This document shows positions 45,710-62,668 of a DNA stretch of 64,000 bases, in pieces. The translations under genes and the position numbers were made by a program. The DNA comes from an uncultured Actinomycetes bacterium (GTDB lineage: Bacteria > Actinomycetota > UBA4738 > HRBIN12). The notes beneath the pieces are model-generated. The model saw only the letters and a list, made by a program, of their open reading frames with translations. It did no database searches and was not told where the DNA came from. Position 1 is the stretch's first letter. The number at the start of each line of letters is the position of its first letter. Where the stretch lies: positions 134,230-198,229 of the forward strand of contig CAWBVL010000007.1 of assembly GCA_963792215.1 (NCBI GenBank). Reading direction: 5' to 3'.

Positions 45710-45775
45710 GGCGGCAGTATCCCAAGTGCGGGTCCAGCGGCCGTGGGAACGTCTCCCTATCATGTACGCCAGCCC

Positions 45776-47581
45776 ATGAAGCGGACGTTCCGTTCCCTCG
45801 CGATCACCACCGCGGTGCTGACGCTGCTGCTGATCGCGTGGGGCGGGATCGTGCGCGCGACGGGCTCGGGGGACGGATGTCCGGACTGGCCCGCCTGCTT
45901 CGGCCGGTGGATCCCGCGGGCCGAGTACCACACGCTGATCGAGTACACGCACCGTCTCCTTGCGTTCCTGGCGGGCGTCGCGTCGCTGGCCCTCGCCGCC
46001 GTCGGCGGGTGGTCGCTGTTCCGCAAGGGCCCCGTCGAACGGGTTACTGCCTGGCTCGCCGTCGCGCTGCTCCCCCTATTCATCGTCCAGGCGCTGATCG
46101 GCGGTTGGATCATCCACTCCGGGGAGAACCCGAGCGTGGTGACGCTGCACTTCGCCGTCGCGTTCATCGTGCTCGGCCTTGTCGTGGTGATCGCGGCCCG
46201 GACGCTGCTGGGCACGGCCGCGGGCGGGGACCGGACGTACGCGCGGCTAACGCTTCTGGCGGCGGCCGCCACCTACGCGTTGCTGCTGGTCGGGACCTAT
46301 GTGCGGGCCGAGAACGCAGGCCTCGCGTTCCGTGAGTGGCCCCTGATGGGACAGAGCCTCGTGCCCGACCTGTCGCTCCCAGGCGCCGTCGCGATGTTCG
46401 CCCACCGGATGCTCGCGATCGTCGTCGTCGCCCTGGTCGCCTGGACGATGATCCGCGCCCGCACGATGACGCCGCGATCCCCGTTGCTCGTCCGACTCTC
46501 GACCGGGGCGCTGATCTTGCTGGTCATCCAGGTGTTGGTCGGGGGCGCCAACGTGCTCACAGAGCTCGCAACGTGGGCGCGGGCGTCCCACGTCGCCATC
46601 TCCGCGCTGATCTGGGCGACCGTCGTGGCGCTCACCGTCGCTGCCCGCGTCGAGCCGTCCGGCGACCGGTCGCCCGATCGAGCGACCGCCCCCGAGACCG
46701 AGGGCGTCACGCCGCCCACGATGGGCGACACGATCCGCGCTTACGTCGCGCTCACCAAGCCGCGCATCATCGTCCTGCTGCTGATCATAACCGTCCCGGC
46801 GATGGTCCTTGCGGCCGGCACGATCCCGTCGCTCGCGTTGATCCTGGTGACGTTGATCGGCGGCACCCTGGCCGCCGGCGCGGCCAACGCGATGAATATG
46901 TACCTGGACCGCGACATCGACCAGGTGATGCGCCGGACGCGCCAGCGGCCGTTGCCGAAGCACCGGATCGAGCCGGAGGCGGCGCTCCGGTTCGGGTTCG
47001 TGCTCGCCGCGATCGCGTACGCGTTCCTGGCGATCACGGTGAACGTGCTCGCCGCCGCCCTCGCGCTGTCGGCGATCGCGTTCTACGTCTTCGTCTACAC
47101 GATGTGGCTGAAGCGCTCGACCGACCAGAACATCGTGATCGGCGGCGCCGCCGGCGCAGTACCCGTCCTGGTGGGATGGGCGGCGGTCACGGGGTCGATC
47201 GCCATGCCCGCGATCGTGCTGTTCAGCGTCGTCTTCCTGTGGACGCCACCGCATTTCTGGGCCCTGGCGCTCCGGATGCGAGACGACTACGCGGCGGCCG
47301 GCGTGCCGATGATGCCGGTGGTCCGGGGCGACGACGAAACCCGCAAGCAGATCTTCCTGTACTCGCTGGTCCTGTTCGGGGTGACCCTGCTGTTGATCCC
47401 GATCGCCTCGATGGGGCCGGTCTACACCGCGACCGCGGTGGTCCTCGGCGGCGTGTTCGTGTACCGCTGCCTGCAGCTGTGGCGTGAGCCCAGCGACGAC
47501 CAGGCATGGCGGGTCTTCAAGTTCTCCCTGCTCTACTTGGCCGGGCTGTTCGTCGCGGTCGCGATCGACGCGCTGGTCTGA
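45776..47581 (+). CDS. ctaB: Fused heme A synthase (CtaA/COX15) and heme O synthase (CtaB/CyoE)
   Basis: N-half GCPDWPACFG, EYTHR; C-half LTKPRI, DRDIDQVMRRTRQRP, YTMWLKR, WTPPHFWAL. Confidence 0.9.
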   Translation: MKRTFRSLAITTAVLTLLLIAWGGIVRATGSGDGCPDWPACFGRWIPRAEYHTLIEYTHRLLAFLAGVASLALAAVGGWSLFRKGPVERVTAWLAVALLPLFIVQALIGGWIIHSGENPSVVTLHFAVAFIVLGLVVVIAARTLLGTAAGGDRTYARLTLLAAAATYALLLVGTYVRAENAGLAFREWPLMGQSLVPDLSLPGAVAMFAHRMLAIVVVALVAWTMIRARTMTPRSPLLVRLSTGALILLVIQVLVGGANVLTELATWARASHVAISALIWATVVALTVAARVEPSGDRSPDRATAPETEGVTPPTMGDTIRAYVALTKPRIIVLLLIITVPAMVLAAGTIPSLALILVTLIGGTLAAGAANAMNMYLDRDIDQVMRRTRQRPLPKHRIEPEAALRFGFVLAAIAYAFLAITVNVLAAALALSAIAFYVFVYTMWLKRSTDQNIVIGGAAGAVPVLVGWAAVTGSIAMPAIVLFSVVFLWTPPHFWALALRMRDDYAAAGVPMMPVVRGDDETRKQIFLYSLVLFGVTLLLIPIASMGPVYTATAVVLGGVFVYRCLQLWREPSDDQAWRVFKFSLLYLAGLFVAVAIDALV

Positions 47582-48102
47582 TCCCCGAGCACCTGGTCGA
47601 GCACCCCGGACAGCTGGCTCGCACTCGTCGCGCCCGGCCCGATCATGTAACGGATGGTCCCGGTCCGGTCCACGACGTAGGTGTCGGGCAGGCCGACGTA
47701 GTCGAGCGACGCCGCGAACTTCCCCGTAGGGTCGGCGATGCTCGGATACGGCACCTTGTAGCTCTGGACCCACGCGTTGGCCGCCGCGTCCTGGTCCATG
47801 TGGTCGATCCCTAGGAACCGCACCCCGTGGCTCGCGTACCGCTTGGCGACGTCGACGAGTTCCGGCTGTTCCATCTGGCACGGCGTGCACCACGACGCCC
47901 ACGCGTTGATCACGAGCACCTTGCCGGCGAAATCGGCGGTGGACAGCTCGTTTCCGCCGATCGAAGGCCCGCTCAGCGTCGGCAACGGCTTGTCCATCCT
48001 GCGGACGCTCGTGCTCGCGTCCGACGACTGGTCCGTCGTTCGGGTGCAGGCCGCCAGCGCGAACACCGCGACGAGGACGGCGATCCAGCGGACGAGGCGC
48101 AT
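47533..48102 (-). CDS. ResA/TlpA-like thiol-disulfide oxidoreductase lipoprotein
   Basis: Lipobox LAAC; NAWASWCTPCQME; GLPDTYVVD. Confidence 0.87.
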   Translation of the reverse strand: MRLVRWIAVLVAVFALAACTRTTDQSSDASTSVRRMDKPLPTLSGPSIGGNELSTADFAGKVLVINAWASWCTPCQMEQPELVDVAKRYASHGVRFLGIDHMDQDAAANAWVQSYKVPYPSIADPTGKFAASLDYVGLPDTYVVDRTGTIRYMIGPGATSASQLSGVLDQVLGDQTSASIATATNSPAK

Positions 48103-48130
48103 ACGGACCACGGTACCCAACGGCCGCGGA

Positions 48131-49468
48131 TCAGCCGACGGTGACGGTGCCGTTCATGTCCGGGTGTACATCGCAGTGGAAGAAATAGGACCCCGGCGGC
48201 AGTGCAGGGATCTGATACTGGACCGTCTTCACGCCGGTCACGATGCCGCCGGTGAACAACGGGTTCGTCGCTGAGGCGTCGGGGAAGATCGCGATGTCGT
48301 GCGGCACGTTCGCATCCTGATTGTCGAACGTCAGCGTGTACGGCTTATTCGCCGGCAACGTGATCGTCTGCGTGTCGAATGCAAGTCCGGAGGCCGTCAC
48401 AGTCGTCGTGTCCCCACCGGCCGGCGGCGGACCCGAGGTCGGCGGTGGCGCCGAGGTCGGCGGTGGTGCGCTCGTCGGCGGTGGACCGCTGGTCGGTGGC
48501 CCACTGCCTCCCCCACCGGCCGGCGTCACGGTGACCGTGCCGTTCATGTCGGTGTGGATGTCGCACCGGAAGAAGTATGTGCCCGGCTGGAGCGCCGGGA
48601 TCGTGTAATCGCCCTTCCCGACCCCGGTGACGAAGTCCCCGCGGAACAGGTTCTTCTTGGCCGAGCTGTCGGTGTAGATCGCCAGGTTGTGCTGGACGCC
48701 CGAGTCGTCGTTGTTGAAGGTGAACTGCGTCGGCTTCCCCGCCTGGAACGTCAGGCTGTCGGTGTTGAACTGGAGCCCCGACGCCGTGATCGACGACGAC
48801 ACGCCTCCACCGGGTCCCTCGGTGCTCGCGCCGGGTGAGGTCGTGAGCGTGCCGGTCATCGTCGTCGGGTGGAAGCTGCAGAAGAAGAAGTACTTCCCGG
48901 CAGGCAACGAGGGAACCGAGTAGTCGATGGTCGACACGCCCGTGATACCGCCGCCCTCGACGTAGGTCGTTGCGCTCGGGTCCTTCTGCGGGTCGGTCGA
49001 CGCGACCGTGACCTGGTGCTCGACGCCGGGGTCCTGGTTGTCGAACGTGATCGTGAACGGGGTGTCGGACGGTGCGGTGAGGGAGTTGTCCTGGAAGCCG
49101 CTCCCGGCGGCCCCCGACGGTGCGGTGATGGTGAGGACGACGGTCGGGGCCCCGGGTCCTTCCGTGCTTTTCGACGCAAGCAGCAGCGCGGCGCCGGACG
49201 CGAGCATCGCCACACCGATCACGCCGACCCCGACCGTCAGCAGCGACCCGGTGTTCACGCGCTTACGCGAGGCGACGATCCCGACCACCGTCACGATGCC
49301 GGCGGCGGTGACGAACGCGGTCGCGGTCGCGGCATGCGGCTCCATCCGAAGCAGCAACCGCGAGAACCCCCACAGCACGATCCCGATGCCGATCAGCAAT
49401 ACCAGCGGGATCAGGATCGGCAGGAGCAGGCTCTGGCGTGGCCGCGGCGCCTTCGGATCGTCGGTCAT
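48131..49468 (-). CDS. Membrane-anchored protein with three cupredoxin domains
   Basis: Three N-terminal hydrophobic helices; three repeats of F-x-N-x-D-x3-H...Y-F-F-x-C-x2-H-x2/3-M-x-G. Confidence 0.85.
   Translation of the reverse strand: MTDDPKAPRPRQSLLLPILIPLVLLIGIGIVLWGFSRLLLRMEPHAATATAFVTAAGIVTVVGIVASRKRVNTGSLLTVGVGVIGVAMLASGAALLLASKSTEGPGAPTVVLTITAPSGAAGSGFQDNSLTAPSDTPFTITFDNQDPGVEHQVTVASTDPQKDPSATTYVEGGGITGVSTIDYSVPSLPAGKYFFFCSFHPTTMTGTLTTSPGASTEGPGGGVSSSITASGLQFNTDSLTFQAGKPTQFTFNNDDSGVQHNLAIYTDSSAKKNLFRGDFVTGVGKGDYTIPALQPGTYFFRCDIHTDMNGTVTVTPAGGGGSGPPTSGPPPTSAPPPTSAPPPTSGPPPAGGDTTTVTASGLAFDTQTITLPANKPYTLTFDNQDANVPHDIAIFPDASATNPLFTGGIVTGVKTVQYQIPALPPGSYFFHCDVHPDMNGTVTVG
48425..48500 (-). 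repeat. Four 18-nt tandem units encoding PPTS(G/A)P linker
   Basis: Protein GPPTSGPPPTSAPPPTSAPPPTSGPPP between cupredoxin domains 2 and 3. Confidence 0.75.
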
Positions 49469-50292
49469 CGGTGCGCCCCCGCCGCCCGCAGATCGGCCTC
49501 GACGTCACGCAGTGCGAGCGCGTCCCAGCCCTCGACGTCCTCGCGGTGCCCCCAGCGGAAGAAGATCGTCGCGATGAACCCCCAGAAGATCAGCGTGCCG
49601 AGCAGCTTCATCGATAGGCCGGCAACGAGCTGATCGGTCAGCGCCGAGATGCCGAAGACACGTGGGAACGTCTGGTACACGAGGTACAGCGGCTGATGCG
49701 AGAACGTGAGGAACGCCGCGGGCACCATCGGCACCAGCGACTGGACAAACAGGTAGAGCATCTGCACCGGCGGCGTGAGCGGCGGCAGCTCCGGCAGCGG
49801 CGACATGATCGGCCACCACATGATGATCGCCGAGCCCACGAGCACGACGTGCAGGAAGAAGTGCAGCGGCTCGTGCACGACGGCCGAGTCCACGACGACC
49901 GGCCAGTGCGTGATCAGCAGCACCCCATTGAAGATCAGCGTGGCGACGAGCGGCCGCGTCATCTTCTGCCAGGCGAGCGCCACCGTCGGCGGCGACAGCA
50001 CCTTCCGCCACATCCACGCCGGGATCCCGGCGACGAGCATCGGCGCGGCGACCAGTGTGTAGAGCAGGTGCTGGACCATGTGCGCCGTGTACCAGACGTG
50101 CTCGGCCAGGTCGTGCAGCGGCCACATCGACCCGATGAACAGCACGCCCATCCCGGTCAGGAAGATCGTGCGGACGTGCGCCGTGGTGACCTCGCCGGTG
50201 TCGCGCTCGTGCCGGCGCGCCCAGATCAGGTACGCGGCGACGACCGACCCGAGGATCAGGATGACGTCGACGTGCGCGTTGAAGGGCGGCAT
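49465..50292 (-). CDS. ctaG: caa3-type cytochrome c oxidase assembly factor CtaG
   Basis: AHMVQHLL, HWP, LHFFLH, DQLVAGLSMK. Confidence 0.85.
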   Translation of the reverse strand: MPPFNAHVDVILILGSVVAAYLIWARRHERDTGEVTTAHVRTIFLTGMGVLFIGSMWPLHDLAEHVWYTAHMVQHLLYTLVAAPMLVAGIPAWMWRKVLSPPTVALAWQKMTRPLVATLIFNGVLLITHWPVVVDSAVVHEPLHFFLHVVLVGSAIIMWWPIMSPLPELPPLTPPVQMLYLFVQSLVPMVPAAFLTFSHQPLYLVYQTFPRVFGISALTDQLVAGLSMKLLGTLIFWGFIATIFFRWGHREDVEGWDALALRDVEADLRAAGAHR

Positions 50293-50296
50293 CGCG

Positions 50297-50662
50297 TCAG
50301 CCCGCCCACACGCGGAACATCAGCAGCACGACGGCGTACAGCGTGAACGCGCCGATCGCGCCGAGGGCGAACACCCGGGAGAACCGGCCGTTGTCGAACT
50401 TCAGGTGCATGAAGTAGCCGACCACCAGCACGAACTTGATGACCGTGCAGGTGAACAGCGCGACCACCAGCTTGGTCCCGGCGAGCGAGGAGTAGCTGAG
50501 CGCGACCTCGATGCAGGTGAGCGCGATGAGCAACAGCCCGACGCGGAGGTACTCGCGGGCCGACGGGTGATACGCGATGTGCTGCTCGGGCGGGTCGGTC
50601 GGCTTCGCCGCGGTGTCCGGTTCGATCCGGTGTCCGGTCGAGCTCATCGGGTCGGTCTCCAT
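50297..50662 (-). CDS. ctaF: Cytochrome c oxidase subunit IV
   Basis: Y...LTCIEV, KFVLVVGYFMHLKFD. Confidence 0.85.
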   Translation of the reverse strand: METDPMSSTGHRIEPDTAAKPTDPPEQHIAYHPSAREYLRVGLLLIALTCIEVALSYSSLAGTKLVVALFTCTVIKFVLVVGYFMHLKFDNGRFSRVFALGAIGAFTLYAVVLLMFRVWAG

Positions 50663-50664
50663 CG

Positions 50665-51276
50665 CTAGACGGCTCCGTGCGGCGGCGGGGCCGGGATCAG
50701 GTAGACGACCGTGAAGATCACGATCCAGACGATGTCCACGAAGTGCCAGTACAGCCCGACCATCTCGACGGGGAACGCTGGGTCGTCGGACAGCGACCCG
50801 CGGAACGAGAACGCGATCAAGATCAGCAGCATCAAGATCCCGACGGTCACGTGCACGCCGTGGAACCCGGTGAGCACGAAGAAGGTGGAACCGAACAGGT
50901 TCGTGTGCAGCGTCAGCCCCTCGCGGAAGAACGACGTGAACTCGAACACCTGGCCGCCGACGAAGCAGAGGCCGAGCATCGCGGTCGCGAGCAGCCACAA
51001 GCGCATCCGCGCGAAGTCGCGCGCGAGCGCGGCGTTGTGGGCGAGCACCATCGTGAGCGAGCTCGCCAGCAGCACGAACGACGACACCGACGTGTAGCCG
51101 ATGTCGAACACGTCCTGCGGATACGGGCCGGTCGTGCTCTGCCCGCGGTACAGCACGTAGGCGGTGATCAGCCCGCCGAACAGCAGGCACTCCGACGCGA
51201 GGAACAGCCACATCGCGAGCTTGGTCGACCGAAGGCCGGTGGACGTGTACTCGATCGGCGCGTGGATGTCAGACAT
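50665..51276 (-). CDS. ctaE: Cytochrome c oxidase subunit III
   Basis: WLFLASE, LTGFHGVHV, GLYWHFVDIVW. Confidence 0.93.
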   Translation of the reverse strand: MSDIHAPIEYTSTGLRSTKLAMWLFLASECLLFGGLITAYVLYRGQSTTGPYPQDVFDIGYTSVSSFVLLASSLTMVLAHNAALARDFARMRLWLLATAMLGLCFVGGQVFEFTSFFREGLTLHTNLFGSTFFVLTGFHGVHVTVGILMLLILIAFSFRGSLSDDPAFPVEMVGLYWHFVDIVWIVIFTVVYLIPAPPPHGAV

Positions 51277-51279
51277 CGC

Positions 51280-53139
51280 TCAGTCCGCCACCGAGGGCTC
51301 GAGGGCCCAGCCCGTCAGCCCGACCACGATCACCAACGCGCCCGCCGCCACGAGCCACCAGGAATACAGAACCCCATAGCCGAGCAGCGGGAACCCGAAC
51401 GACACGACCAGCGGCCAGAACGACGGGCTCGGCAGATGGATCGCGTGGCCCTCGCCGTGATGCTCCTCGCCTGACCCACCCGCGGGCACGCGCACCAGCC
51501 GGCCGCTCTCGTCCTCTGCGTACTTGCGGTGCCAGAACTCGTCCAGCGAGTGCACCGTCGGGATCTCCTCGAAGTTGTAGACCGGCGGCGGGCACGCGGT
51601 CGTCCACTCGAGCGTGCGCGCATCCCACGGGTCCTCGTTCTCCAGGCCGGCCGGCTTCGTCAGGCTGCGGATCACCAGGATGATGAACAGCAGCACGCTG
51701 AGCGCGATCGTGAACGCGCCGACCGAGGACATCTGGTTCCAGAACGTGAGGCCTAGCGCCGCCGGGTAGGTGTACTCGCGACGGATCATCCCGCCGAGGC
51801 CCAGGATGTGCATCGGCGCGAACGTCAGGTTGAACCCGATCAGCAGGATCCAGAACTGCACCTTGCCCCACTTCTCAGGCAGCAATCGTCCGAACACCTT
51901 CGGCCACCAGTAGTACGCCGCGCCGAAGATCGCGAAGATCGCGCCGCCGAAGAGCACGTAGTGGAAGTGCGCCACGACGTAGTAGGTGTCGGTCTGCTGG
52001 TAATCCGACGGCACGATCGAGTGCGTCACGCCCGACAGCCCGCCGATCACGAACATCGCGATGCCGCCGATCGCGAACAGCATCGGCGTGTCCAGATGCA
52101 GATCGCCCCCGTACAGCGTCCCCATCCAGTTGAAGATCTTCACGCCGGTCGGCACCGCGATGATCGCCGTCGAGATCCCGAACGCGGTGTTCGCGACCGG
52201 ACCCAGGCCCGCCGCGTACATATGGTGCACCCACACGCCGAACCCGATGAACCCGATCGCGATCCCGGAGAACACCACGAACTGGTAGCCGAACAACGGC
52301 TTCCGCGCGAACACCGGCAGGATCTCGCTGAAGATGCCGAAGGCGGGCAAGATCAAGATGTAGACCTCGGGATGGCCGAATAACCAGAACATGTGTTGCC
52401 ACAGCAACGGCTCCCCGCCGCGGGTCGGATCGAAGAAGGCGGTATCCCACCGCCGGTCGAACAGCATCTGGAACAGCGCGACCGTGATGATCGGCAGCGA
52501 GAACGCCAGCAGGAACTGCACGACCAAGCCCATCCACACGAACACCGGCATCCGGAACAGCGACATGCCGGGCGCGCGCATGTTGATGACGGTGATCGCC
52601 AGGTTGATCGCGCCGACGGTCGACGCGATACCGGTGATCAGCAGGCCGAGCGCGTAGAACGTCATCCCGTTGCCCGGGTCGGTCGTCGAGTTCGGCGCGT
52701 ACGCGAACCAGCCGCCGTCGGGCGCGCCGCCCAGGAACCAGCTCGAGTTGAGGAACAGCGCGCCGAGCAGGAACACCCAGAACGACAGCGCGTTCAGCCG
52801 CGGGAACGCAACGTCGCGCGCGCCGATCATCAACGGGATCAGGTAGTTGAAGAACGCCGCCGACATCGGCATGACGAACAGAAAGATCATCGTCAGGCCG
52901 TGCATGGTGAAGATCTGGTTGTACTGGTCCGCGTTCAGCAGTGTGTTGCTCGGCTTGGACAACTGCGACCGGATCAGCAGCGCTTCGCAGCCGCCGAGCA
53001 CGAAGAACAGGAACGACGACAACCCGTACATGATCCCGATCTTCTTGTGGTCCACCGTCGTGAACCAGCTCCAGAAGCCCGTCGTCGCCATAGGGCGGCG
53101 CAGGATGCCTCGTTCGCGGGTCACGGTGACAGTTGCCAT
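51280..53139 (-). CDS. ctaD: Cytochrome c oxidase subunit I (A1 type)
   Basis: DHKKIG, FTMHG, GHPEVY, VWVHHM, AHFHY. Confidence 0.96.
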   Translation of the reverse strand: MATVTVTRERGILRRPMATTGFWSWFTTVDHKKIGIMYGLSSFLFFVLGGCEALLIRSQLSKPSNTLLNADQYNQIFTMHGLTMIFLFVMPMSAAFFNYLIPLMIGARDVAFPRLNALSFWVFLLGALFLNSSWFLGGAPDGGWFAYAPNSTTDPGNGMTFYALGLLITGIASTVGAINLAITVINMRAPGMSLFRMPVFVWMGLVVQFLLAFSLPIITVALFQMLFDRRWDTAFFDPTRGGEPLLWQHMFWLFGHPEVYILILPAFGIFSEILPVFARKPLFGYQFVVFSGIAIGFIGFGVWVHHMYAAGLGPVANTAFGISTAIIAVPTGVKIFNWMGTLYGGDLHLDTPMLFAIGGIAMFVIGGLSGVTHSIVPSDYQQTDTYYVVAHFHYVLFGGAIFAIFGAAYYWWPKVFGRLLPEKWGKVQFWILLIGFNLTFAPMHILGLGGMIRREYTYPAALGLTFWNQMSSVGAFTIALSVLLFIILVIRSLTKPAGLENEDPWDARTLEWTTACPPPVYNFEEIPTVHSLDEFWHRKYAEDESGRLVRVPAGGSGEEHHGEGHAIHLPSPSFWPLVVSFGFPLLGYGVLYSWWLVAAGALVIVVGLTGWALEPSVAD

Positions 53140-53156
53140 CGGTCGGGTTCGCGCTC

Positions 53157-54311
53157 CTACGAGAGGCTATAGAGGTAGGCCATCAGGTACTGGATCTGTT
53201 GTGGCGTCAGGTTGTAGTCCGGCATCTTCGCACCGAGCTTGACCGCGTTCGGATCTTCGAGCCACGCCGACAACGCGGCTTCGTTCGGCTGGCCGTTGAC
53301 GAACGTGTCGAAGTCGCACCCGGCGAAACAGGGGTGCGTCTGGTCCGCGAAGTCGGACAGGTTCGGCGCCGCCGTGCTGACGGCCGACGTCCCCCCGATC
53401 GAATGACACGCGATGCACTGCCCCGCGCCCTCGCCGATCGTCCCGGGGGTGCCGAAGAAGATATCCATCCCCTTGGCCGCGTCGCTGCCCGGGGCCGGCG
53501 TCGGCGCCGGCTGTTTCCGCGCCTGGACCCAGTTGGCCCAGTCGGTCGGGTTCAGGGCGATGATCCGGAACTTCATCATCCCGTGCTCGAGGCCGCAGAA
53601 CTCCGCGCACTGGCCCCAATAGACGCCTGGCTCCCAGGCGGAGAACACGATGTGGTTCCCTTCGCCGGCCGCGCCCGGCACGACGTCCTGTTTGCCGAAC
53701 AGGCGCGGCGCCCAGAACGAATGGATGACCTGGTGGTCGGGCGTACCGTCGGTGCTGTGCGCGCCCCCGCCCTCGGACCGCAGCGACAGGTCGATCGTCC
53801 GCCCCGCGGGGATCACCATCACGTCGGCCGTCGTGATCGGGCCGTGGTCGCCGTAGTTGACCGCCATGTCCTGGTCCATGTATTGGAAGCCCCACCACCA
53901 CTGATAGCCCTGCACGGTGATCTGCATCGCGTCGGGCGGCCGCTGCGCGAGCTTCCAGATCAACGAGATCGCGGGCACCATCACGACCGCGAGCAGCACG
54001 GCCGGCGCCACGGTCCATCCCAGTTCGAGGCGTGTGTTGCCGTGCAGCTGGCTCGGCATCCGCTCCTTGCCCTTGCGATGCCGGAACTTGAGGGCGAGGA
54101 AGAGGATGCCGCCTTCCACGCCGACGAAGACGATCCCCGCGATGATCAGTGGGACGATCAGCACGTCCTTCTCGGACTGCGCGGTCGGTCCGGCGGGATT
54201 GAAGGTGTTCTGCGGCAGGTCCTTGCCACAGCCGACCAACAGGAGCGTGAGCAGGACGGCCCCCACGACCCACAGCAGCTTCCTCGGCACCCTGCTCCTC
54301 ATCGTCCGCAT
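53157..54311 (-). CDS. ctaC: Cytochrome c oxidase subunit II with fused cytochrome c (caa3 type), lipoprotein
   Basis: Lipobox LVGC; YQWWW; CuA ligands HSFW and CAEFCGLEHGMM; C-terminal CIACH...KMP; start uncertain (54311 or 54302). Confidence 0.92.
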   Translation of the reverse strand: MRTMRSRVPRKLLWVVGAVLLTLLLVGCGKDLPQNTFNPAGPTAQSEKDVLIVPLIIAGIVFVGVEGGILFLALKFRHRKGKERMPSQLHGNTRLELGWTVAPAVLLAVVMVPAISLIWKLAQRPPDAMQITVQGYQWWWGFQYMDQDMAVNYGDHGPITTADVMVIPAGRTIDLSLRSEGGGAHSTDGTPDHQVIHSFWAPRLFGKQDVVPGAAGEGNHIVFSAWEPGVYWGQCAEFCGLEHGMMKFRIIALNPTDWANWVQARKQPAPTPAPGSDAAKGMDIFFGTPGTIGEGAGQCIACHSIGGTSAVSTAAPNLSDFADQTHPCFAGCDFDTFVNGQPNEAALSAWLEDPNAVKLGAKMPDYNLTPQQIQYLMAYLYSLS

Positions 54312-54422
54312 GTCACGTCGCCTGCGGCGAGCCGGCTGGACATTACCACCGCGTCTTGACGCGCCGGTCGTCCCCCATTTCCGTTGCACCGGTTCACATC
54401 AGCCCTGTCGCGTCCCAGCAGG

Positions 54423-55391
54423 TCATTTCGCGTACGAGTGCAATCCCGCGATCCACAGGTTCACGGCGTAATACGTGACCAGCAGCGATACGAAGCCGAC
54501 CAGTGCGACGATCGCCGCGCGCGTTCCCTTCCATCCGGCGGTGGCACGCGCGTGCAGGTACCCGGCGAAGATCACCCACGTGATGAACGACCAGGTCTCC
54601 TTCGGGTCCCAGCCCCAGTAGCGGCCCCACGTCTGCTGCGCCCAGATCGCGCCGCAGATCACGCCGAACGTCCAGACGGGGAATCCGAAGCGGATGAACT
54701 TGTACGCGAGCGCGTCGAGGGTCGCCGATGGCGGCAACCCGATCTTCTTCGAGGTCGTGGCGCTGCCGACCGGCTCGTCGGCGCCGCCCGCGTAGCCGGG
54801 GGGCGCGTCCGGGTCCGACGTCTCGACGCCGGCGCCGCCCATGATCGGCGGCGGTTTCGTGCCGGTGCGGAGCCGGTCGAGCTCGCGCCGTTCGCTCGCG
54901 GCCTTGATCAGGTACACGATCGTGAGCAGGCAGCCGATCCCGAGCAGGGACGACGCGGTGATCATCGCCGTCACGTGGATCTGACGCCAGTAGGAGTTGA
55001 GCGCCGGCATCAGCGCCGTGGGCCCGACGTAGAAGAACGAGACGGCCATCGCCATCCAGAGCACGGCCATCGCGTAGACGAATCCACCGACGGTCCGGAC
55101 CTTCGCGCGCGCCTCGATGATCCACAGGTAGCCGAGGACGACGAGGAACGTGATCATCGTCGAGTACTCGTACATGTTGCCCCACGGCGTGCGGTCCGCC
55201 GCGATCCCGCGCGTCACGATCGAGACGCCGTTGGCGACCAGGCCGATCACGCCGATCACCGTTGCGGCGGTGTGCAGCCGTTCCTTGCGGAACGCCAGAT
55301 ACGCGAACGAGCAGATCATCGCGGCGATGTAGGAGAACAACGCAACGTTGAACGCATCGGACGACAGCCGGCCCCATTGATCGGTGGTCAC
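54423..55391 (-). CDS. ccsB: System II cytochrome c biogenesis protein ResC (WWD domain)
   Basis: PWGNMYE, GAIWAQQTWGRYWGWDPKETW, GLHSYA. Confidence 0.93.
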   Translation of the reverse strand: MTTDQWGRLSSDAFNVALFSYIAAMICSFAYLAFRKERLHTAATVIGVIGLVANGVSIVTRGIAADRTPWGNMYEYSTMITFLVVLGYLWIIEARAKVRTVGGFVYAMAVLWMAMAVSFFYVGPTALMPALNSYWRQIHVTAMITASSLLGIGCLLTIVYLIKAASERRELDRLRTGTKPPPIMGGAGVETSDPDAPPGYAGGADEPVGSATTSKKIGLPPSATLDALAYKFIRFGFPVWTFGVICGAIWAQQTWGRYWGWDPKETWSFITWVIFAGYLHARATAGWKGTRAAIVALVGFVSLLVTYYAVNLWIAGLHSYAK

Positions 55392-57034
55392 GGCGACACC
55401 TCCTGCGGATCTGGCTGCGACGCCGGCTGCGATTCGCGAGCGATCGCGCCGCCGGCGGCCGTCGTCACGCCCTCGACCAACGAGGCGAACTCCTCATCGA
55501 AGTGATCCTTCCGTTGCAGCGCGAACCCTCCCACCTGCAGGACCGATCCCGTGCCGTCGGGCCGTGCCCGGACCCACACCTTGCGCCGGGAGATGTACAG
55601 CGCCGGCAGCAGGCCGAGCACGATGAGGATAGCGGCCGCCAACACCCAGGGGACGGTCGCGTCATGCGAGATCTGCAGGGTCGTGTACTGCCGCAGATCG
55701 GGGAACGCCATCGTGAGCGTCGCCGGTCCCCCGCTGTTCGGACAGGTCACGTTGCCGAGCGATGCCGGGATCGCACCGCTCGTTCCGGAGACCACGCAGC
55801 CTTGCGTCGCGTCGACGGTCCACCCCTTGCCGATCAACCCGGACGACGTCTCGTGCATGAACCGGGTGTCCAGGCTGGACAGGGAGTTATCCAGGAGCTT
55901 CCCCTGCCACACCTCGTACTGCATGAACGGCGCGTTGGCCTGGGTCATCGGCTGTGGGATGCCGGTGGCGATCGTCTGGAAATAGGCGGCCGCATCTGGA
56001 TACAGGCGGACCGCGATCGCGATCTGCGGCCGCAGGGTCGTGAGCTTGACGAACCCCGTCCACGGCTGGGCCAGCGGATTCCCGCCCGGCGGCGTCGTCT
56101 GCCCGAGCACCACCGGACCGTCGAACAGCGTCCGGTCGCCGCGTTTCACCTGGATGATCGGCGCCCAGCCGAACCCGAACTGGTAGATCCGGACCCCGTT
56201 GAACACCACCGGGTGGTTGATCCGAACGTCGGCCTGCTCGGTGGTCCCGTCCGGCGCCGCGAGGGTGAGCTCTGAGCGGAAGTCCATGGGGATCCCGCTG
56301 GTCCGGAAGTCGTCCTCGAAGTTCTGCAGCTGGATCTGGGTCCCCGAGAAGTTGCCCCCGAAGAACCGCCCGGTCCGCAGGTCGCCGTCGTAGTTGAACT
56401 GGGCGTCGGTCCACCCATAGCCCTCGACGATGGTGGCGTGGCCGACGTACCCGGTCCCCTTGCCGAGGATCACCGCGATCAGCAGCAAGAGGAACGCCCA
56501 GTGGAAGGCGAGGCTCCCGATCTCCCGCAGAGCGCCCTTCTCTGCCGCCACCGAACCGGCCGACGCGTCGAGCTCAACGCGATAATGCCTGCGGCGCAAC
56601 GCCGTCGCCGCTCCAGCGGCGGCGGCTTCCGGCGCCATCGCCACCCGCCGCTCCGCGAACGCGGGGAAGGCGTCGAGCTCCCGGGCGTGGATCGGCTTGG
56701 CCCTGGCGGCCCGGATCATCGCCCGCGACCGCGGGATCAGGCAGGCAACGAGCGACACGAACAGCAACGTCGTGATGAGCGCGAACCACCACGACCCGAA
56801 CACATCGAAGAACCCCGCCGCCTGCCAGAGCTTGGCCCACAAAGGATGATCGATCTGGTAGGCCGCCACGCGCTGCGGGCTATTGGGGATCTGCGGGATC
56901 AGCGACCCGACGACCGCCGCCGCCGCGAGCATCAACAGCAGGACGATCGCCGTCCGCATCGAGCGGAGCGTCCGCCAGACGAGCGCGACGGACTTCCGCA
57001 GGGACGACGGAGCAGAGGCGACGGGACCGGACAT
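55388..57034 (-). CDS. resB: Cytochrome c biogenesis protein ResB
   Basis: LRSMRTAIVLL, GSLIPQ, FDVFGSWWF, INHP. Confidence 0.9.
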   Translation of the reverse strand: MSGPVASAPSSLRKSVALVWRTLRSMRTAIVLLLMLAAAAVVGSLIPQIPNSPQRVAAYQIDHPLWAKLWQAAGFFDVFGSWWFALITTLLFVSLVACLIPRSRAMIRAARAKPIHARELDAFPAFAERRVAMAPEAAAAGAATALRRRHYRVELDASAGSVAAEKGALREIGSLAFHWAFLLLLIAVILGKGTGYVGHATIVEGYGWTDAQFNYDGDLRTGRFFGGNFSGTQIQLQNFEDDFRTSGIPMDFRSELTLAAPDGTTEQADVRINHPVVFNGVRIYQFGFGWAPIIQVKRGDRTLFDGPVVLGQTTPPGGNPLAQPWTGFVKLTTLRPQIAIAVRLYPDAAAYFQTIATGIPQPMTQANAPFMQYEVWQGKLLDNSLSSLDTRFMHETSSGLIGKGWTVDATQGCVVSGTSGAIPASLGNVTCPNSGGPATLTMAFPDLRQYTTLQISHDATVPWVLAAAILIVLGLLPALYISRRKVWVRARPDGTGSVLQVGGFALQRKDHFDEEFASLVEGVTTAAGGAIARESQPASQPDPQEVSP

Positions 57035-57079
57035 CGCTGTTCCGATGCTACCTGCGGCGGTTCGACCGCAGACCCGAGG

Positions 57080-57811
57080 TCACAGCAGCGGTCCGTACTT
57101 GATCAGCGGCGCCAGCCGCCGGGTGAACTCCCCCGTCGCCACCAGCACGCCGACCACCACGAGCAGCGAGCCCGATACGACGGCGATCGCGCGGTAGTGG
57201 CGCTGCACCCAGCGAGCGGAACCGGCGAGCCACTCCACGCCGAGCCCGAGCGCGATGAACGGGATACCAAGCCCGAGCGAGTAGCAGAGCAGGAGGAACG
57301 CGCCCCAGCGCGAGCTCCCCACCGCGGCCAGACCCAAGATCGCGCCCAGGACCGGGCCGACGCACGGCGTCCAGCCGGCAGCGAACGCCATCCCCAACGG
57401 CAGCGCTCCGGCGGTCCCCGGGTGCACCCGCTCGAGGAATGGCCGGCGCTCGGCGTACAACCGGATCGACCCCCGGCCCAGCGCGTACCCGATCAGCAGC
57501 ACGCCGAGGACGACGATCACAACACCGGCCACGATCTGTCCGCGCCGGTCCTTGACCAGGTGGACGAACGTCGAGGCGAACGCTCCGTACAGCGTGAACA
57601 TCACGGTGAAGCCCGCGACGAACAGCAGGATCGGCGCCAGCCGGTGCCACCGGCCGCGGCCCTCGTCGGTCACGGCCTCGCCGGTCACGAACGACAGGTA
57701 GCCCGGCACGAGCGGCAAGACGCACGGGCTCGCGAACGAGACGAACCCCGCGAGCATCGCGACCAACGGCGCCCACACATGGGTGACCGTGTCGCTGGTG
57801 TCGCCGATCAT
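57080..57811 (-). CDS. ccdA: Cytochrome c biogenesis protein CcdA
   Basis: SFASPCVLPLVPGYLS, FAAGWTPCVGP. Confidence 0.92.
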   Translation of the reverse strand: MIGDTSDTVTHVWAPLVAMLAGFVSFASPCVLPLVPGYLSFVTGEAVTDEGRGRWHRLAPILLFVAGFTVMFTLYGAFASTFVHLVKDRRGQIVAGVVIVVLGVLLIGYALGRGSIRLYAERRPFLERVHPGTAGALPLGMAFAAGWTPCVGPVLGAILGLAAVGSSRWGAFLLLCYSLGLGIPFIALGLGVEWLAGSARWVQRHYRAIAVVSGSLLVVVGVLVATGEFTRRLAPLIKYGPLL

Positions 57812-57988: not shown

Positions 57989-58450
57989 ATGATTCCGCCG
58001 CCAACCGAACGGATGGGCATGGGTCAGATCGACGTCACCTCGAAGTCGCGGACGAAGCAGCGAGCGAGCGGCGTCAAGGCACGCATCGAGAACTTCCTCC
58101 GCACGTTCGAATGGAGCTGGACCTCCGCGGTCACGTTCGCGCTCGTCCTCACGTTCTTCCTCCTGATCTCGACCTCGATCATGCCGTCGTTCTGGATGTA
58201 CTACGCCGAGCAGAAGATCGGCTGGGCGGGTCCGACCGACATCGAGGCCTTCCTCAAGACCCCGTTCGGCACGAGCCTCACGAACCCGCTGTCGCCCGAG
58301 GGCTATCTGATGGTCCGCGACGCGATCGCGATGGGCCTGACCACCCTGCCGTTCGTGCTTGTCTTGGTCGTGTCGGCGGCGCTGCAGAACTGGCGCAAGA
58401 AGCTCCGCGGCGGCGAGTCCGGCGCCCGACCCACGGGTGGGTACCGCTAG
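57989..58450 (+). CDS. Hypothetical two-TM membrane protein, first gene of the Rieske/cytochrome b operon
   Basis: Two hydrophobic segments; TAG directly abuts the ferredoxin ATG; real start may be a few codons downstream. Confidence 0.7.
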   Translation: MIPPPTERMGMGQIDVTSKSRTKQRASGVKARIENFLRTFEWSWTSAVTFALVLTFFLLISTSIMPSFWMYYAEQKIGWAGPTDIEAFLKTPFGTSLTNPLSPEGYLMVRDAIAMGLTTLPFVLVLVVSAALQNWRKKLRGGESGARPTGGYR

Positions 58451-58887: not shown

Positions 58888-59640
58888 GTGGCGAAGATCC
58901 AGCCGCCGAACCTGCGGGAATCTGAGGTCTGGAAGTCGATCTTCAGGCCGGGCTCGATCTATCGCAAGGGCTACAAGGACACGTCGCGCGACCGCGCGCT
59001 CGCGACGATGAACAACGTGCTGTGGCACCTGCACCCCACGAAGGTGAAGCGCCACGGGTTGAAGCTCACCTACACGTTCTGCCTCGGCGGCCTGTCGTTC
59101 TTCCTGTTCGTGCTGCTGACGATCACCGGCATCTTCCTGATGTTCTTCTACCGGCCGATGGCCGACATCGGCGGCGCGCAGGCCTACACCGACATGCAGA
59201 CGATCCGCACGTCGGTGTTCTTCGGCGACATGGTCCGCAACATGCATCGATGGGGCGCGCACCTCATGGTGCTGTCGGTGACGCTGCACATGGCGCGCGT
59301 GTTCTACACCGGCGCGTACAAGCCGCCGCGCGAGTTCAACTGGGTCGTCGGCGTCGTGCTGCTGTTCCTCACGCTCGGCCTCTCGTTCACCGGCTACCTG
59401 CTCCCGTGGGACCAGCTGGCGATCTGGGCCGTCACCGTCGGGACGTCGCTCGCCGGCTACTCGCCGTTCATCGCGAAGCAGGCCAACTTCCTGCTCCTCG
59501 GCGGCGCGATCGTGTCGCCCAATACCTTGTTGCGCTGGTACGTGCTGCACGTGCTCGCGCTGCCGTTCGTCTTGGTGCTGTTCCTCGCGGTCCACTTCTG
59601 GCGGATCCGTAAGGACGGCGGGATCTCGGGGCCGCTCTAG
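58888..59640 (+). CDS. qcrB: Cytochrome b6-like subunit (split cytochrome b, N-terminal part)
   Basis: TFCLGG, MHRWGAH...[13 protein letters not shown]-x14-HF, C-terminal GISGPL. Confidence 0.92.
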
Positions 59641-60486
59641 ATGACCTGGGAAGAAGTCAACAAGGACATGGGCGCCTACCAGACGGCGCTCGATGCACAG
59701 ACGTCCTCGGGGGTCGACCGCCGTGTCGCCGAGGGACGCGCTCGCCGCGCCGCGGTGCGCGCCTACCTCAAGGAGCACCCCGAAGAGGAAGCCGCGCACG
59801 CGGCCCAGGCACGAACCGCTGCGCCCGCCGGCGCCCCTGCTGCTGCCGCGGCGAGTGGGAACGGCGGAGCCGCTGCGCCGGTCGCCGCACCGGTGGGCGC
59901 GGGGGTCGCCGTCGCCGCTGCGCCGATCACCGCCGCGGTGCGTGAGGCGCCGCTGCCGACCGGCAACATCCCCGAGCCGAAGAAGGGCGCGCCCGACAAG
60001 CACCGCCTGCTCGCGATCGTGCCGCCCGAGGGCATCCAGCGGGTCGAGCGCGAGCAGGGCGACCGCGTTCACACGTGGCCGCACCTCCTGCTCGAAGAGT
60101 TCATCGCGATGGCGATCCTGTTCGCCGGCTTGCTGGTGTTCTCCTCGCTGATCAACGCGCCGCTGCGCGAACTCGCGAACCCGAACCTGACCCCGAACCC
60201 GTCCAAGGCGCCGTGGTACTTCCTCGGCCTGCAGGAGCTGCTCCGCTACTTCCACCCGATGGTTGCGGGCATCGTGATCCCAACGTTCATCCTGGTCGGG
60301 CTCGCGGCGGTCCCCTACGTGGACCGCAACCCGAGCATCAAGCCCGGCGATCGCAAGGTCGCGATCACGCTGTTCGCGATCCTGTTCATGTTCGGCGCGA
60401 CCCTCACGATCATCGGTTGCTTCTTCCGAGGGCCCGGCTACAACTGGATCTGGCCCTGGACACAAGGGGTCTTCTTCGAGCTATGA
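59641..60486 (+). CDS. Cytochrome b subunit IV (PetD-like) with Ala-rich N-terminal extension
   Basis: TWPHLL, ANPNLTPNPSKAPWYF, PYVDRNP; three TM helices. Confidence 0.85.
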   Translation: MTWEEVNKDMGAYQTALDAQTSSGVDRRVAEGRARRAAVRAYLKEHPEEEAAHAAQARTAAPAGAPAAAAASGNGGAAAPVAAPVGAGVAVAAAPITAAVREAPLPTGNIPEPKKGAPDKHRLLAIVPPEGIQRVEREQGDRVHTWPHLLLEEFIAMAILFAGLLVFSSLINAPLRELANPNLTPNPSKAPWYFLGLQELLRYFHPMVAGIVIPTFILVGLAAVPYVDRNPSIKPGDRKVAITLFAILFMFGATLTIIGCFFRGPGYNWIWPWTQGVFFEL

Positions 60487-61193
60487 CGTTCCTCGCCATC
60501 TCCAACGGCACCCTCGCGGTGATCATCGTCGTGATCTTGGCCGACATCTTCTTGGTCGCGTTCCTGATCGGGTACTCCCGCCGGGCGCGCGCCGCGAAGC
60601 GTGCGGCTGCAGGCGAGCTGCCCGCCGCGCCGGCGAAGGCGGTCAGCCGCCGTGACTTCCAGCGGCGGGCGCTGCTCACGTCGGTGATGCTGTTCGGCGC
60701 GGAGTTCGGCCTGGGCACGATCGGGTTCCTGTGGCCAAACCTCAAAGGTGGGTTCGGTTCGAAGATCAACGCCGGCCCGCTGCAGGAGATCAAGTCGGAG
60801 ATCCAGACCGCGAACTACGTCTACGTCGGCGCGGCCCGCACCTACCTGGTCGCATGGAACGGCACGCCGGGCGCCGGCCTGGCCGACTACCCGGCCGAAG
60901 GCGTGACGTCGGACGGCGTGATGTCGCTGTACCAGCGCTGCGTGCACCTCGGGTGCCGTGTCCCGTTCTGCAACTCGTCGAAGTGGTTCGAGTGCCCGTG
61001 CCACGGCTCGAAGTACAACAACGCCGGCGAATACAAGCTCGGACCGGCGCCGCGCGGCCTGGACCGGTTCCAGATGTCAGTCGTCGACGGGAGCGTGATC
61101 GTCGACACCTCGACGATCAAGCTCGGCCCGCCCCGCGGCACGAATACCACCGACCAACCGCTCGAAGGCCCCTTCTGCGTGGCGCCGGGATGA
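60483..61193 (+). CDS. qcrA: Rieske iron-sulfur subunit
   Basis: SRRDF Tat-like motif; CVHLGC, CPCHGSKY, GPAPRGL. Confidence 0.93.
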   Translation: MTFLAISNGTLAVIIVVILADIFLVAFLIGYSRRARAAKRAAAGELPAAPAKAVSRRDFQRRALLTSVMLFGAEFGLGTIGFLWPNLKGGFGSKINAGPLQEIKSEIQTANYVYVGAARTYLVAWNGTPGAGLADYPAEGVTSDGVMSLYQRCVHLGCRVPFCNSSKWFECPCHGSKYNNAGEYKLGPAPRGLDRFQMSVVDGSVIVDTSTIKLGPPRGTNTTDQPLEGPFCVAPG

Positions 61194-61921
61194 TCGCGTC
61201 GACGAACTACGCCGCGGTCACGCTGATCGCCGCCGGGGGCGCGTTCATCGTGGGCATCATCGCGGTCGTCGCGCTTCGCCACCGCGCGAAGGGGAAGCGC
61301 GCCGAGGTCCCCGCGGGGATGCGGCCTGGGCCGTCGGACCAAGCGCTCGAGACGCCGCTCCTGCTCAAGCTGCAGGGCTGGGGCGTGGTGCTCGTCACGT
61401 TCTTCGTGCTGTGGTTCCCGGTGATGTGGCTCATCGAGCCGAACACGAACCTGAAGCAAGAGAACCAGCTCGTCACCGAGGCGATCGCACGCGGCCAGCT
61501 CGCGACCCAACCGTTCTCCGAAGAGAACGGCCTCGGTGTGGGCTGCGTCCGCTGCCACGGCAACGAGTTGCAGGGCGGTGTGATCAACGCGCTCGACGCG
61601 AAGGGGAACCCGATCCTCGCCTACCCGCCGAACCTCACCACGGTCTGCGGCGGACCGTTCTACAACCACCCCAACATCTTCAGCATCGACGACATCTTCC
61701 AGGTGATCCAGGAAGGCCGGGGTGCGATGCCGTCCTGGAGCATCCGGTATTCGGGCGCGCTCGACGATCAGCAGATCAACGACCTCGTGCTGTACCTGGT
61801 GCAGCTCAGCTCGCAGAACGTGTCGTTCGACAAGAACGTTTGCCTGAACAAGGCGGCGTCGGACAAGGCGCTCGCCGAGAACGCGAAGTCCGCCTCGCCA
61901 CTCGACCCGAGGGACCCGTAG
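61190..61921 (+). CDS. Membrane-anchored monoheme cytochrome c
   Basis: Two TM helices, CVRCHG, GAMPSW (Met ligand); ATGA overlap with the Rieske gene. Confidence 0.88.
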   Translation: MIASTNYAAVTLIAAGGAFIVGIIAVVALRHRAKGKRAEVPAGMRPGPSDQALETPLLLKLQGWGVVLVTFFVLWFPVMWLIEPNTNLKQENQLVTEAIARGQLATQPFSEENGLGVGCVRCHGNELQGGVINALDAKGNPILAYPPNLTTVCGGPFYNHPNIFSIDDIFQVIQEGRGAMPSWSIRYSGALDDQQINDLVLYLVQLSSQNVSFDKNVCLNKAASDKALAENAKSASPLDPRDP

Positions 61922-62668
61922 ATGGAGCAGCACTCCTGCCTGACGTTCGCCGTGGACTGCGGCGTGATGTTCAAGGGGATCGGCGTCGTGCTCGCCGGCT
62001 TCATCTTGTTCGTCGGGAGCGTCTACATGTTGCTCACCGCGATCTTCGGCCGGTACATGGCGTATCTCGTGGTCGCCGTGGCCTTCTTCGGATGGATGAC
62101 GATCCAGTCCGGCATCTGGCTGTTCGGGTTCTGGTCCCAAGGTCCTCAGACGAAGACGAACCTCGGACCGCGCGGGCCTGAGCCCGCCTGGGTGGTGGAC
62201 TCCGCCGGGCTGGATCCCGGCGCCACCCACGGGGAGCTCGCGTCGTATCCGAGCGGCGCGTATCCCGAACCCAACCCGAGCGACCCCGTGCAGGCCGCCG
62301 ATCTGCAGGCCGCAACGGGGGTCGTGACCACCTATCTGGCAGACACGGCCAATGCGCAGCTGGGCAACGACCCCTTGGACTACACGGCGCTGCAGCCCAC
62401 GCAATTCACGGTCGATGACCTGCGCTTCGTGACGGCCGAGGACGGGACGAAGCTCGCCGTCGCTCAGGCGCACTTCTTAGGCGGTGGGCCGAACACGATC
62501 GTGACGCTGCATTACAGCGGCGGGCAGGTGTGGCACTACTCGTTGATCTTCTTGATCGGGTCGGCGTTGCTGTTGATCGTGCACATCCCGTTGCTGGACC
62601 GCGCGGAGCGTTCGCGCAAGGAATTCCTGGTCGGTGGCACCGCGCCGCCGTGGTACGGACCGGCCTAA
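61922..62668 (+). CDS. Hypothetical three-TM membrane protein
   Basis: ATG directly after the cytochrome c TAG; two N-terminal and one C-terminal hydrophobic helix around an acidic domain. Confidence 0.75.
   Translation: MEQHSCLTFAVDCGVMFKGIGVVLAGFILFVGSVYMLLTAIFGRYMAYLVVAVAFFGWMTIQSGIWLFGFWSQGPQTKTNLGPRGPEPAWVVDSAGLDPGATHGELASYPSGAYPEPNPSDPVQAADLQAATGVVTTYLADTANAQLGNDPLDYTALQPTQFTVDDLRFVTAEDGTKLAVAQAHFLGGGPNTIVTLHYSGGQVWHYSLIFLIGSALLLIVHIPLLDRAERSRKEFLVGGTAPPWYGPA

Follow-up and report, generated by a model that had tools for sequence, protein, structure and literature searches.

A membrane-anchored protein with three predicted blue-copper domains, encoded in the caa3 oxidase operon of an uncultured Actinomycetota bacterium

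How do electrons cross from the quinol-oxidising complex to the terminal oxidase in the uncultured Actinomycetota of soil? To our knowledge the crossing from complex III to the oxidase is known for a few Gram-positive models only: in Bacillus tethered small cytochromes c link the quinol-oxidising complex to the terminal oxidase, and the bcc-aa3 supercomplex of Actinomycetes has a fused dihaem cytochrome. The question is raised here by a gene in a stretch of 64,000 nucleotides (the window) from an uncultured Actinomycetes bacterium (assembly GCA_963792215.1, contig CAWBVL010000007.1, positions 134,230 to 198,229). The gene lies in the operon of a caa3-type cytochrome c oxidase and codes for a membrane anchor followed by three cupredoxin domains. 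Because its electron-transfer sites are conserved, its gene is linked to the oxidase operon, its domains divide into a proximal and a distal class and cytochromes c are few in the assembled genome, we think that the product is probably an extracytoplasmic membrane-anchored protein with three blue-copper centres, acting as an electron carrier or accessory subunit of the caa3 oxidase.

The open reading frame (ORF) starts with ATG, codes for 445 amino acids (aa) and has its stop codon at 48131-48133. The plus strand of the same interval contains no open frame and is interrupted by stops throughout. The gene and its parts are the following.

48131..49468, minus strand: whole gene, three-helix transmembrane anchor and three type-1 cupredoxin domains (ORF list, Pfam, AlphaFold2)
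49154..49468, minus strand: N-terminal membrane anchor, residues 1-105, with helices 15-39, 44-66 and 73-99
48833..49144, minus strand: domain 1, membrane-proximal class, residues 109-212; H151, C197, H200, M204; loop C-x2-H-x3-M
48521..48799, minus strand: domain 2, distal class, residues 224-316; H260, C302, H305, M308; loop C-x2-H-x2-M
48410..48520, minus strand: Pro/Thr/Ser/Gly-rich tether between domains 2 and 3, residues 317-353 (translation, predicted local distance difference test, pLDDT)
48134..48409, minus strand: domain 3, second copy of the distal class, residues 354-445; H390, C432, H435, M438; loop C-x2-H-x2-M

The Pfam family Cupredoxin_1 (PF13473) matches the protein in three stretches (E 4.3e-35, 120 bits against a cut-off of 27), and Copper-bind (PF00127) matches as well (E 3.8e-15). 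In the AlphaFold2 model of the whole protein (mean pLDDT 81, predicted template-modelling score, pTM, 0.37) the three domains are beta-sandwiches with values above 90, whereas the tethers at residues 99-108, 219-221 and about 317-353 are disordered. The last of these, with its PPPTS-like repeats, has a pLDDT of 34-37 and is without secondary structure, and its length and composition differ among the aligned homologues. The helices of the model agree with the hydropathy profile. Three transmembrane helices, three cupredoxin domains with their upstream His residues and ligand loops, a Pro/Thr/Ser arm ahead of domain 3 and a start codon overlapping the ctaG stop (ATGA) had all been noted in an earlier reading made from the sequence only, and all of them are present. 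Compared pairwise the domains have 38/93, 43/92 and 50/92 identical residues and, as far as their sequences tell, are paralogues of one another.

Each of the three domains possesses a full type-1 ligand set, an upstream His and a Cys/His/Met loop (CSFHPTTM, CDIHTDM and CDVHPDM, respectively), and would accordingly hold one copper ion. In an alignment of 33 sequences, the least similar of which is 43% identical, the 12 ligands are all invariant or almost invariant; a single row (P0065), out of register apparently by a frameshift, keeps C432 and H435 from full invariance. We further assembled 62 anchor-bearing proteins, 61 from related loci and the one of the window, of which 58 are intact. The loop C-x2-H-x(2-4)-M is found in 138 of the 138 domains of these 58 proteins, and ligand sets so strictly conserved point to selection on working copper sites. 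Besides the two ligand His residues the domains contain no His, with the exception of one in domain 3. The sites are of the classical buried His/Cys/His/Met electron-transfer type, unlike chaperone-type sites.

Profile searches of the Protein Data Bank (PDB) gave auracyanin A (2aan) as the best match for both domain classes (E 4e-11 for the distal and 2e-11 for the proximal class), the match covering only the N-terminal half of the domain (positions 7-62). Plastocyanin 1pla (4e-9), amicyanins (5e-8) and a Roseiflexus auracyanin were matched as well, and a search with the single sequence returned plastocyanin alone (E 6.5e-4). When domain 3 was modelled singly (pLDDT 97.8), Foldseek placed it closest to the auracyanins 6kol and 2aan, with a query-normalised template-modelling score (TMq) of 0.85, and gave 0.71 for amicyanins. 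Judged by profiles and models, the nearest solved relatives are all electron carriers (auracyanin, amicyanin and plastocyanin), and the Pfam, PDB and Foldseek results back the earlier assignment to type-1 domains of this kind. Several more specific families were rejected. The amicyanin equivalog TIGR02657 scored 29.6 bits against a cut-off of 110.2 and the plastocyanin equivalog TIGR02656 29.9 bits against 87.85; PCuAC was ruled out by the lack of a PF04314 match at E <= 0.01 and by the single Met-containing ligand loop of each domain, Sco by the lack of a PF02630 match and by the cupredoxin fold. Multicopper oxidases and NirK were ruled out too (PF07731 at 17.7 bits against 20.4, with 0 stretches; no HxH type-2/3 motifs). 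NirK and laccases (6hbe, 9cck) were the top Foldseek matches of the whole model, at a template-modelling score of about 0.2 and a root mean square deviation of 15-22 A, so that the likeness is one of domain to domain and no assembly is shared.

Auracyanins A and B of Chloroflexus aurantiacus and Roseiflexus castenholzii (2aan, 1qhq, 6kol) are therewith the best single-domain relatives in both profile and fold. These type-1 copper carriers, tethered to the membrane, belong to a menaquinone-based chain and feed a terminal oxidase; their partner complex is alternative complex III, so that the partner differs here. Auracyanin has one domain and a single N-terminal anchor, whereas our protein and its orthologues have a three-helix anchor with two or three heads, and the Cys-His-Met loops are short here (C-x2-H-x2/3-M). 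Amicyanin (Paracoccus; 1aac, TIGR02657) is matched over the full length of the profile (E 5e-8 and weaker; fold TMq 0.71) and shares with domains 2 and 3 the short loop C-x2-H-x2-M. It is a soluble single-domain protein with methylamine dehydrogenase as its partner. Multicopper oxidases and the three-domain NirK likewise have several cupredoxin domains per chain; theirs form a compact assembly, whereas here the linkers are disordered and the pTM is 0.37.

The number and arrangement of the heads were compared over the 62 anchor-bearing proteins. Two domains are present in 36 of them and three in 22, the remaining four being broken by frameshifts or contig ends. The earlier idea of a three-copper wire is not supported as a fixed or necessary arrangement, since two heads are the commoner state among the intact orthologues. 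The first domain has the loop C-x2-H-x3-M in 47 of 58 cases and the later domains C-x2-H-x2-M in 75 of 80. In a quick maximum-likelihood tree of the 138 domains, calculated from 95 columns and with many forks open, one split with 98% support (Shimodaira-Hasegawa-like approximate likelihood ratio test, SH-aLRT) separates 55 rows on the proximal side (54 first domains and one second domain) from 83 on the distal side (79 distal domains and four first domains). Third domains group with the second domains of their own lineages at several places in the distal side, which makes the third head an additional distal copy, gained more than once. The split fits a fixed proximal head with mobile distal heads. 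Outside the class of the window single type-1 domains are common, some of them with C-x4-H-x3/4-M loops, and one locus (L128) codes for two domains.

The anchor is conserved as well. A WGFSRxLL-like motif at the end of the first helix and a face of small residues (AATxTAxxxA) in the second helix are kept, and P21, S36, R37, L39, L40, A47 and G85 are invariant in 31 sequences. The N-terminal tail and the second loop carry three Lys and Arg residues each and the first loop two; these counts, the hydropathy profile and the AlphaFold2 model are consistent with the predicted topology, as in the sequence-only reading, with the N-terminus inside and the copper domains outside. The anchor alone had no Pfam family (best E 0.03) and no usable match in the ESM Atlas. 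Its profile, searched against 1.84 billion representatives, found 734 at E <= 0.001 and 195 at E <= 1e-10. Among the best 150 of these, 115 are at least 180 aa long, with one type-1 loop in 50, two in 35, three in five and none in 25, many of the last looking truncated. Had the anchor also been found with a haem c head, a carrier role would have been strongly backed; CxxCH occurs in none of the 150 best representatives. In 13 representatives the N-terminus is extended by about 135 aa, a part with no Pfam match.

For the gene neighbourhood Pfam calls on the adjoining ORFs agreed with the earlier placement of the gene inside a caa3 operon, which lies next to the genes of a b6c-type complex. The minus-strand string runs ccdA, resB, ccsA, ctaC, ctaD, ctaE, ctaF, ctaG, cupredoxin gene and a gene for a ResA/TlpA-like thioredoxin, the cupredoxin gene being the last but one.

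54423..57811, minus strand: System II genes for cytochrome c biogenesis, which open the same string, kept upstream of ctaC in related loci (Pfam)
57080-57811, minus strand: ccdA (Pfam)
55388-57034, minus strand: resB (Pfam)
54423-55391, minus strand: ccsA/resC (Pfam)
50297..54389, minus strand: caa3 structural genes as a whole, in the same order in related loci (Pfam)
53157-54389, minus strand: ctaC with fused cytochrome c domain (Pfam)
51280-53139, minus strand: ctaD (Pfam)
50665-51276, minus strand: ctaE (Pfam)
50297-50668, minus strand: ctaF (Pfam)
49465..50292, minus strand: ctaG (Caa3_CtaG, PF09678), its stop overlapping the cupredoxin start (ATGA; Pfam, DNA)
47533..48120, minus strand: ResA/TlpA-like extracytoplasmic thioredoxin with WCTPC motif, probable lipoprotein (Pfam, NCBIfam)
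45743..47581, plus strand: convergent ctaA-ctaB fusion, haem A synthase and haem O synthase, 612 aa (PF02628 and PF01040)
58888..61921, plus strand: divergent b6c-type complex, presumed electron donor (Pfam)
58888-59640, plus strand: cytochrome b6 (Pfam)
59641-60486, plus strand: subunit IV (Pfam)
60486-61193, plus strand: Rieske protein (Pfam)
61190-61921, plus strand: membrane-anchored monohaem cytochrome c (Pfam)

The ResA/TlpA-like gene starts 10-28 nt downstream of the cupredoxin gene, depending on its true start. Its product matches AhpC-TSA/Redoxin in Pfam and DsbE/ResA/TlpA in NCBIfam, all under the equivalog cut-offs, and has one paralogue of 36% identity elsewhere in the genome. Farther out lies a nuo operon, as read by eye from the ORF translations.

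The linkage to the oxidase was followed through the relatives of the protein. Of 8000 candidates scored in a word-index search, 787 were homologues at E <= 0.001, a number far above what chance would give. The few that are named are called 'cupredoxin domain-containing protein' or 'plastocyanin' and come from uncultured Actinomycetota. In a collection of species genomes a relative is encoded in 574 of 607 matched stretches, and the best 80 of the 574 were kept as related loci, their neighbours being identified by tblastn with the proteins of the window. The anchor is present in 61 of the 80, and in all 61 the gene stands directly after ctaG in a ctaC-D-E-F-G string. The ResA-like gene lies downstream in 51 of them; of the other ten, four end at the contig edge, four lead straight to ctaAB and two are otherwise arranged. 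The convergent ctaAB fusion is found downstream in 54. None of the 19 loci without anchor has ctaG: 17 contain unlinked paralogues without a cta neighbour, and two are orthologues cut at the contig start.

The profile of the whole protein matches 150 of the 151 genomes of the class of the window (12 of them flagged as unpublished). The anchor profile matches 91 of 301 genomes sampled across the phylum, ten unpublished genomes being included, and 81 of the 276 high-quality ones. Whole families outside the class carry the anchor (for example 20/20, 10/10 and 15/21 genomes). At 14 of 14 sampled loci from ten such families, none unpublished, the anchor gene lies in or beside the cta cluster, nine times after ctaG, twice after ctaF and three times upstream of ctaC, the latter three with a second ctaD-like gene alongside. 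The sequence-only reading had proposed such a survey of linkage; every one of the 61 and the 14 anchor-bearing loci places the gene at a cta cluster, and the refuting case named there, homologues lying apart from oxidase operons, is not borne out. The protein is a membrane-anchored cupredoxin of a terminal-oxidase gene cluster and belongs in this respect to the functional class of AcoP and SoxE.

A number of orthologues are broken. Those of L011, L031, L047 and several class genomes have frameshifts or in-frame stops and come from assemblies that look like long-read ones, and many profile rows of class genomes contain one TGA or TAG within the match. The probable cause is assembly error, or a match running past the end of the gene, and not decay to pseudogenes.

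How might such a protein work? If it is an electron carrier, the three-helix module would hold it in the membrane next to the oxidase. The proximal domain on its tether of about ten residues would lie near the electron entry of CtaC (cytochrome c domain and CuA), and one or two domains of the distal class would move on longer flexible tethers, of 13 and 37 residues here. These distal heads could accept electrons from the membrane-anchored cytochrome c that belongs to the b6c-type complex, which is encoded divergently about 9 kb away, and electrons would pass from distal to proximal copper and on to haem c of CtaC and to CuA. Small tethered cytochromes c fill the carrier part in other Gram-positive bacteria, and the cupredoxin protein would take over their role. 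In line with this, class-I cytochrome c matches (PF00034/PF13442) number only two in the assembled genome, which is 82.5% complete: the domain in CtaC and the b6c cytochrome c. Among 14 coding-like ORFs with CxxCH in the genome, none of the nine scanned with Pfam is a cytochrome, one other is CtaC and four large ones lie outside the scan.

A bolder version, which we hold to be possible though doubtful, adds the three-helix module to the true subunits of the caa3 oxidase across the deep-branching Actinomycetota. The module would carry a copper antenna, with the proximal head docked at the CtaC entry and the leashed distal heads fetching electrons from the b6c cytochrome c, and a copper-to-copper relay would replace a diffusible carrier. 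A complex prediction with CtaD 10-619, CtaE 8-203, the CtaC transmembrane hairpin 66-152 and anchor residues 8-104 scored 0.09 and 0.18 against a mark of 0.32; limited to these four chains, with 30-31 alignment rows each and no controls, it speaks neither for nor against binding.

Several observations weigh against a role as electron carrier. We counted PF00034 matches in 81 genomes of the class (80 high-quality, seven unpublished): 48 genomes have three to seven, 32 exactly two and one none. In many relatives a carrier other than the copper protein is thus conceivable, and a class-wide rule that no other cytochrome c exists was rejected on the same count. A cytochrome c domain is already part of CtaC, and the b6c complex likewise includes a cytochrome c; a direct supercomplex could make a carrier dispensable. 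The number of domains ranges from one to three across the family. The cupredoxin gene stands between two biogenesis genes, ctaG and that of the ResA/TlpA-like thioredoxin. Lastly, the anchor occurs without a type-1 head in 3 of the 14 loci outside the class: at L123:6944-7396 only the anchor of 151 aa is encoded, and at L124:7013-7717 and L130:6569-7393 the head of about 130 aa has neither type-1 ligands nor a Pfam match. In view of these three loci the core role of the anchor cannot be electron transfer.

The same three loci, one without head and two with a ligand-free head, favour another explanation, in which the protein is a structural or stabilising subunit of the oxidase resembling AcoP, with the anchor as its functional core and copper heads that are dispensable or form a side branch to other periplasmic enzymes. 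The anchor is conserved as much as the heads, it occurs in 91 of the 301 phylum genomes and in the sampled loci its gene is always at a cta cluster; the genome of the window holds five other cupredoxin ORFs. AcoP maintains oxidase activity according to PMC4059628, which describes it as a cupredoxin with a transmembrane anchor, encoded in an oxidase cluster, tightly bound to the oxidase and interacting with cytochrome c and the oxidase. The likeness to this protein of Acidithiobacillus ferrooxidans, a transmembrane-anchored cupredoxin in a cytochrome c oxidase cluster, is by description, and AcoP is set apart by its one transmembrane helix, its one domain, its green copper site, the loop of which is unusually long, and its acidophilic host. 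A purely structural role is contradicted by the ligand sets kept in every head of the 58 intact orthologues, and the tethers and the proximal/distal division suit electron collection better than a static brace. We regard this explanation as unlikely.

Somewhat less likely still is a role in oxidase biogenesis, in which the protein would deliver or store copper along with CtaG and the ResA/TlpA-like thioredoxin, the copper going to CuA (or CuB) in place of Sco and PCuAC. The position of the gene between ctaG and the ResA/TlpA-like gene, with its start overlapping the ctaG stop, suits this idea, and the sequence-only reading had offered it on the premise that no Sco or PCuAC gene is present. The premise holds for the window and very nearly for the genome, in which no Sco match was found (at 82.5% completeness) and the only PCuAC-like ORF is without Met. 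That ORF, lipoprotein-like and located at L081:1447-1956 on the minus strand, cannot therefore carry the PCuAC motif, given as H(M)x10Mx21HxM in PMC9145763. Among the 151 class genomes Sco is found in 26 (19 of the 100 high-quality ones), though all carry the oxidase operon, and PCuAC in 17 (9 of 100). Most genomes of the class are without a detected Sco or PCuAC despite a caa3 operon with a CuA subunit.

If the copper protein replaced Sco, however, Sco should be rarer where the anchor is present, and it is not: in the phylum sample 22 of the 91 genomes with the anchor and 55 of the 210 without it have Sco (17 of 91 and 35 of 210 for strong matches only), counts in which related genomes are not independent, anchor-negative genomes may lack any oxidase and one of the 22 (G151) is unpublished. 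Several families have the anchor protein together with strong Sco matches (f14: 8/12 each). The copper protein has therefore not replaced Sco, and the earlier suggestion of a chaperone or copper store is left without support by this distribution. The electron-transfer type of the sites and the kinship to electron carriers also speak against copper delivery; neither Met/His-rich tails nor a PCuAC or Sco signature were found in the translation and its Pfam matches. The ResA-like gene needs no copper role, since the ccdA-resB-resC haem c system, whose thioredoxin it would be expected to encode, heads the same operon.

Very unlikely is a rusticyanin-like antenna for electrons from donors other than the b6c complex, such as a periplasmic dehydrogenase or an extracellular metal donor: the long Pro/Thr-rich arm and the cupredoxins in oxidase operons of iron oxidisers (PMC8239418, as far as its Fig. 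1 legend goes, which draws membrane-bound cupredoxins, 'Cup', in COX clusters) would suit it, but no conserved outer donor gene adjoins the related or the outside-class loci, the b6c genes lie beside the operon in the window and the family is spread through ordinary soil lineages.

We return to the reading that we favour, that of a carrier or accessory subunit. Blue copper proteins anchored in the membrane next to a terminal oxidase have been described before, and AcoP (PMC4059628) and the 'Cup' proteins of COX clusters (Fig. 1 legend of PMC8239418) are precedents for this reading. Sulfocyanin SoxE in the SoxM supercomplex of Sulfolobus and halocyanin in haloarchaea are membrane-anchored and take the place of cytochrome c beside the terminal oxidase; both are set apart from our protein, by description, as archaeal single-domain proteins with other anchors. 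Distinct here are the three-helix anchor without a known family, the heads of two classes on flexible leashes, the caa3 oxidase with its own cytochrome c domain and the wide spread among uncultured soil Actinomycetota. The family is not described in the full-text literature that we searched; Degli Esposti 2020, outside that scope, may bear on its novelty. In these abundant, uncultured soil bacteria the only cytochrome c oxidase operon includes the gene of a dedicated membrane module that bears one to three predicted blue-copper heads. If this is a true carrier, respiration in much of the soil biomass would depend on copper at one more step, and a tethered cupredoxin with several heads would be a model for intramolecular electron relay from copper to copper.

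Some further observations concern the neighbouring genes. The C-terminal 66 residues of CtaD (51280-51480, minus strand) match positions 71-125 of PF12270 (E 9e-9), which is the second half of the actinobacterial oxidase subunit IV; as the Bacillus-type subunit IV gene ctaF (PF03626) is present too, the subunit set of the oxidase is a mosaic. Lipobox-like motifs follow the hydrophobic N-terminus of CtaC (LVGC) and of the ResA-like protein (LAAC), and from these translations both may be lipoproteins. Two membrane-protein ORFs flank the b6c genes, one at 57989-58450 (plus strand, 153 aa, no Pfam match) and one at 61922-62668 (plus strand, 248 aa, weak DUF7541 match, E 0.002); they may be additional subunits of the b6c-type complex. 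A gene for a Rex-type redox-sensing regulator (62721-63467, minus strand; PF06971 and PF02629) borders the respiratory island.

Two metatranscriptomic contigs fall on the gene. One of 498 nt covers 48356-48850 (data set X15) and one of 419 nt covers 49267-49685, across the junction of ctaG and the cupredoxin gene (X16 and X17, whose figures are identical and which are probably one data set). Being 90-95% alike to the window, they stem from relatives; as contigs with no DNA control they are at most a hint that cupredoxin genes of relatives are present in RNA pools, and no weight attaches to the stretches that they leave uncovered. Finally, in G000:C7:374488-376629 (L107) a 714-aa ORF combines a cupredoxin (PF13473/PF00127) with a NosD-like right-handed beta-helix and a PLDc_N segment.

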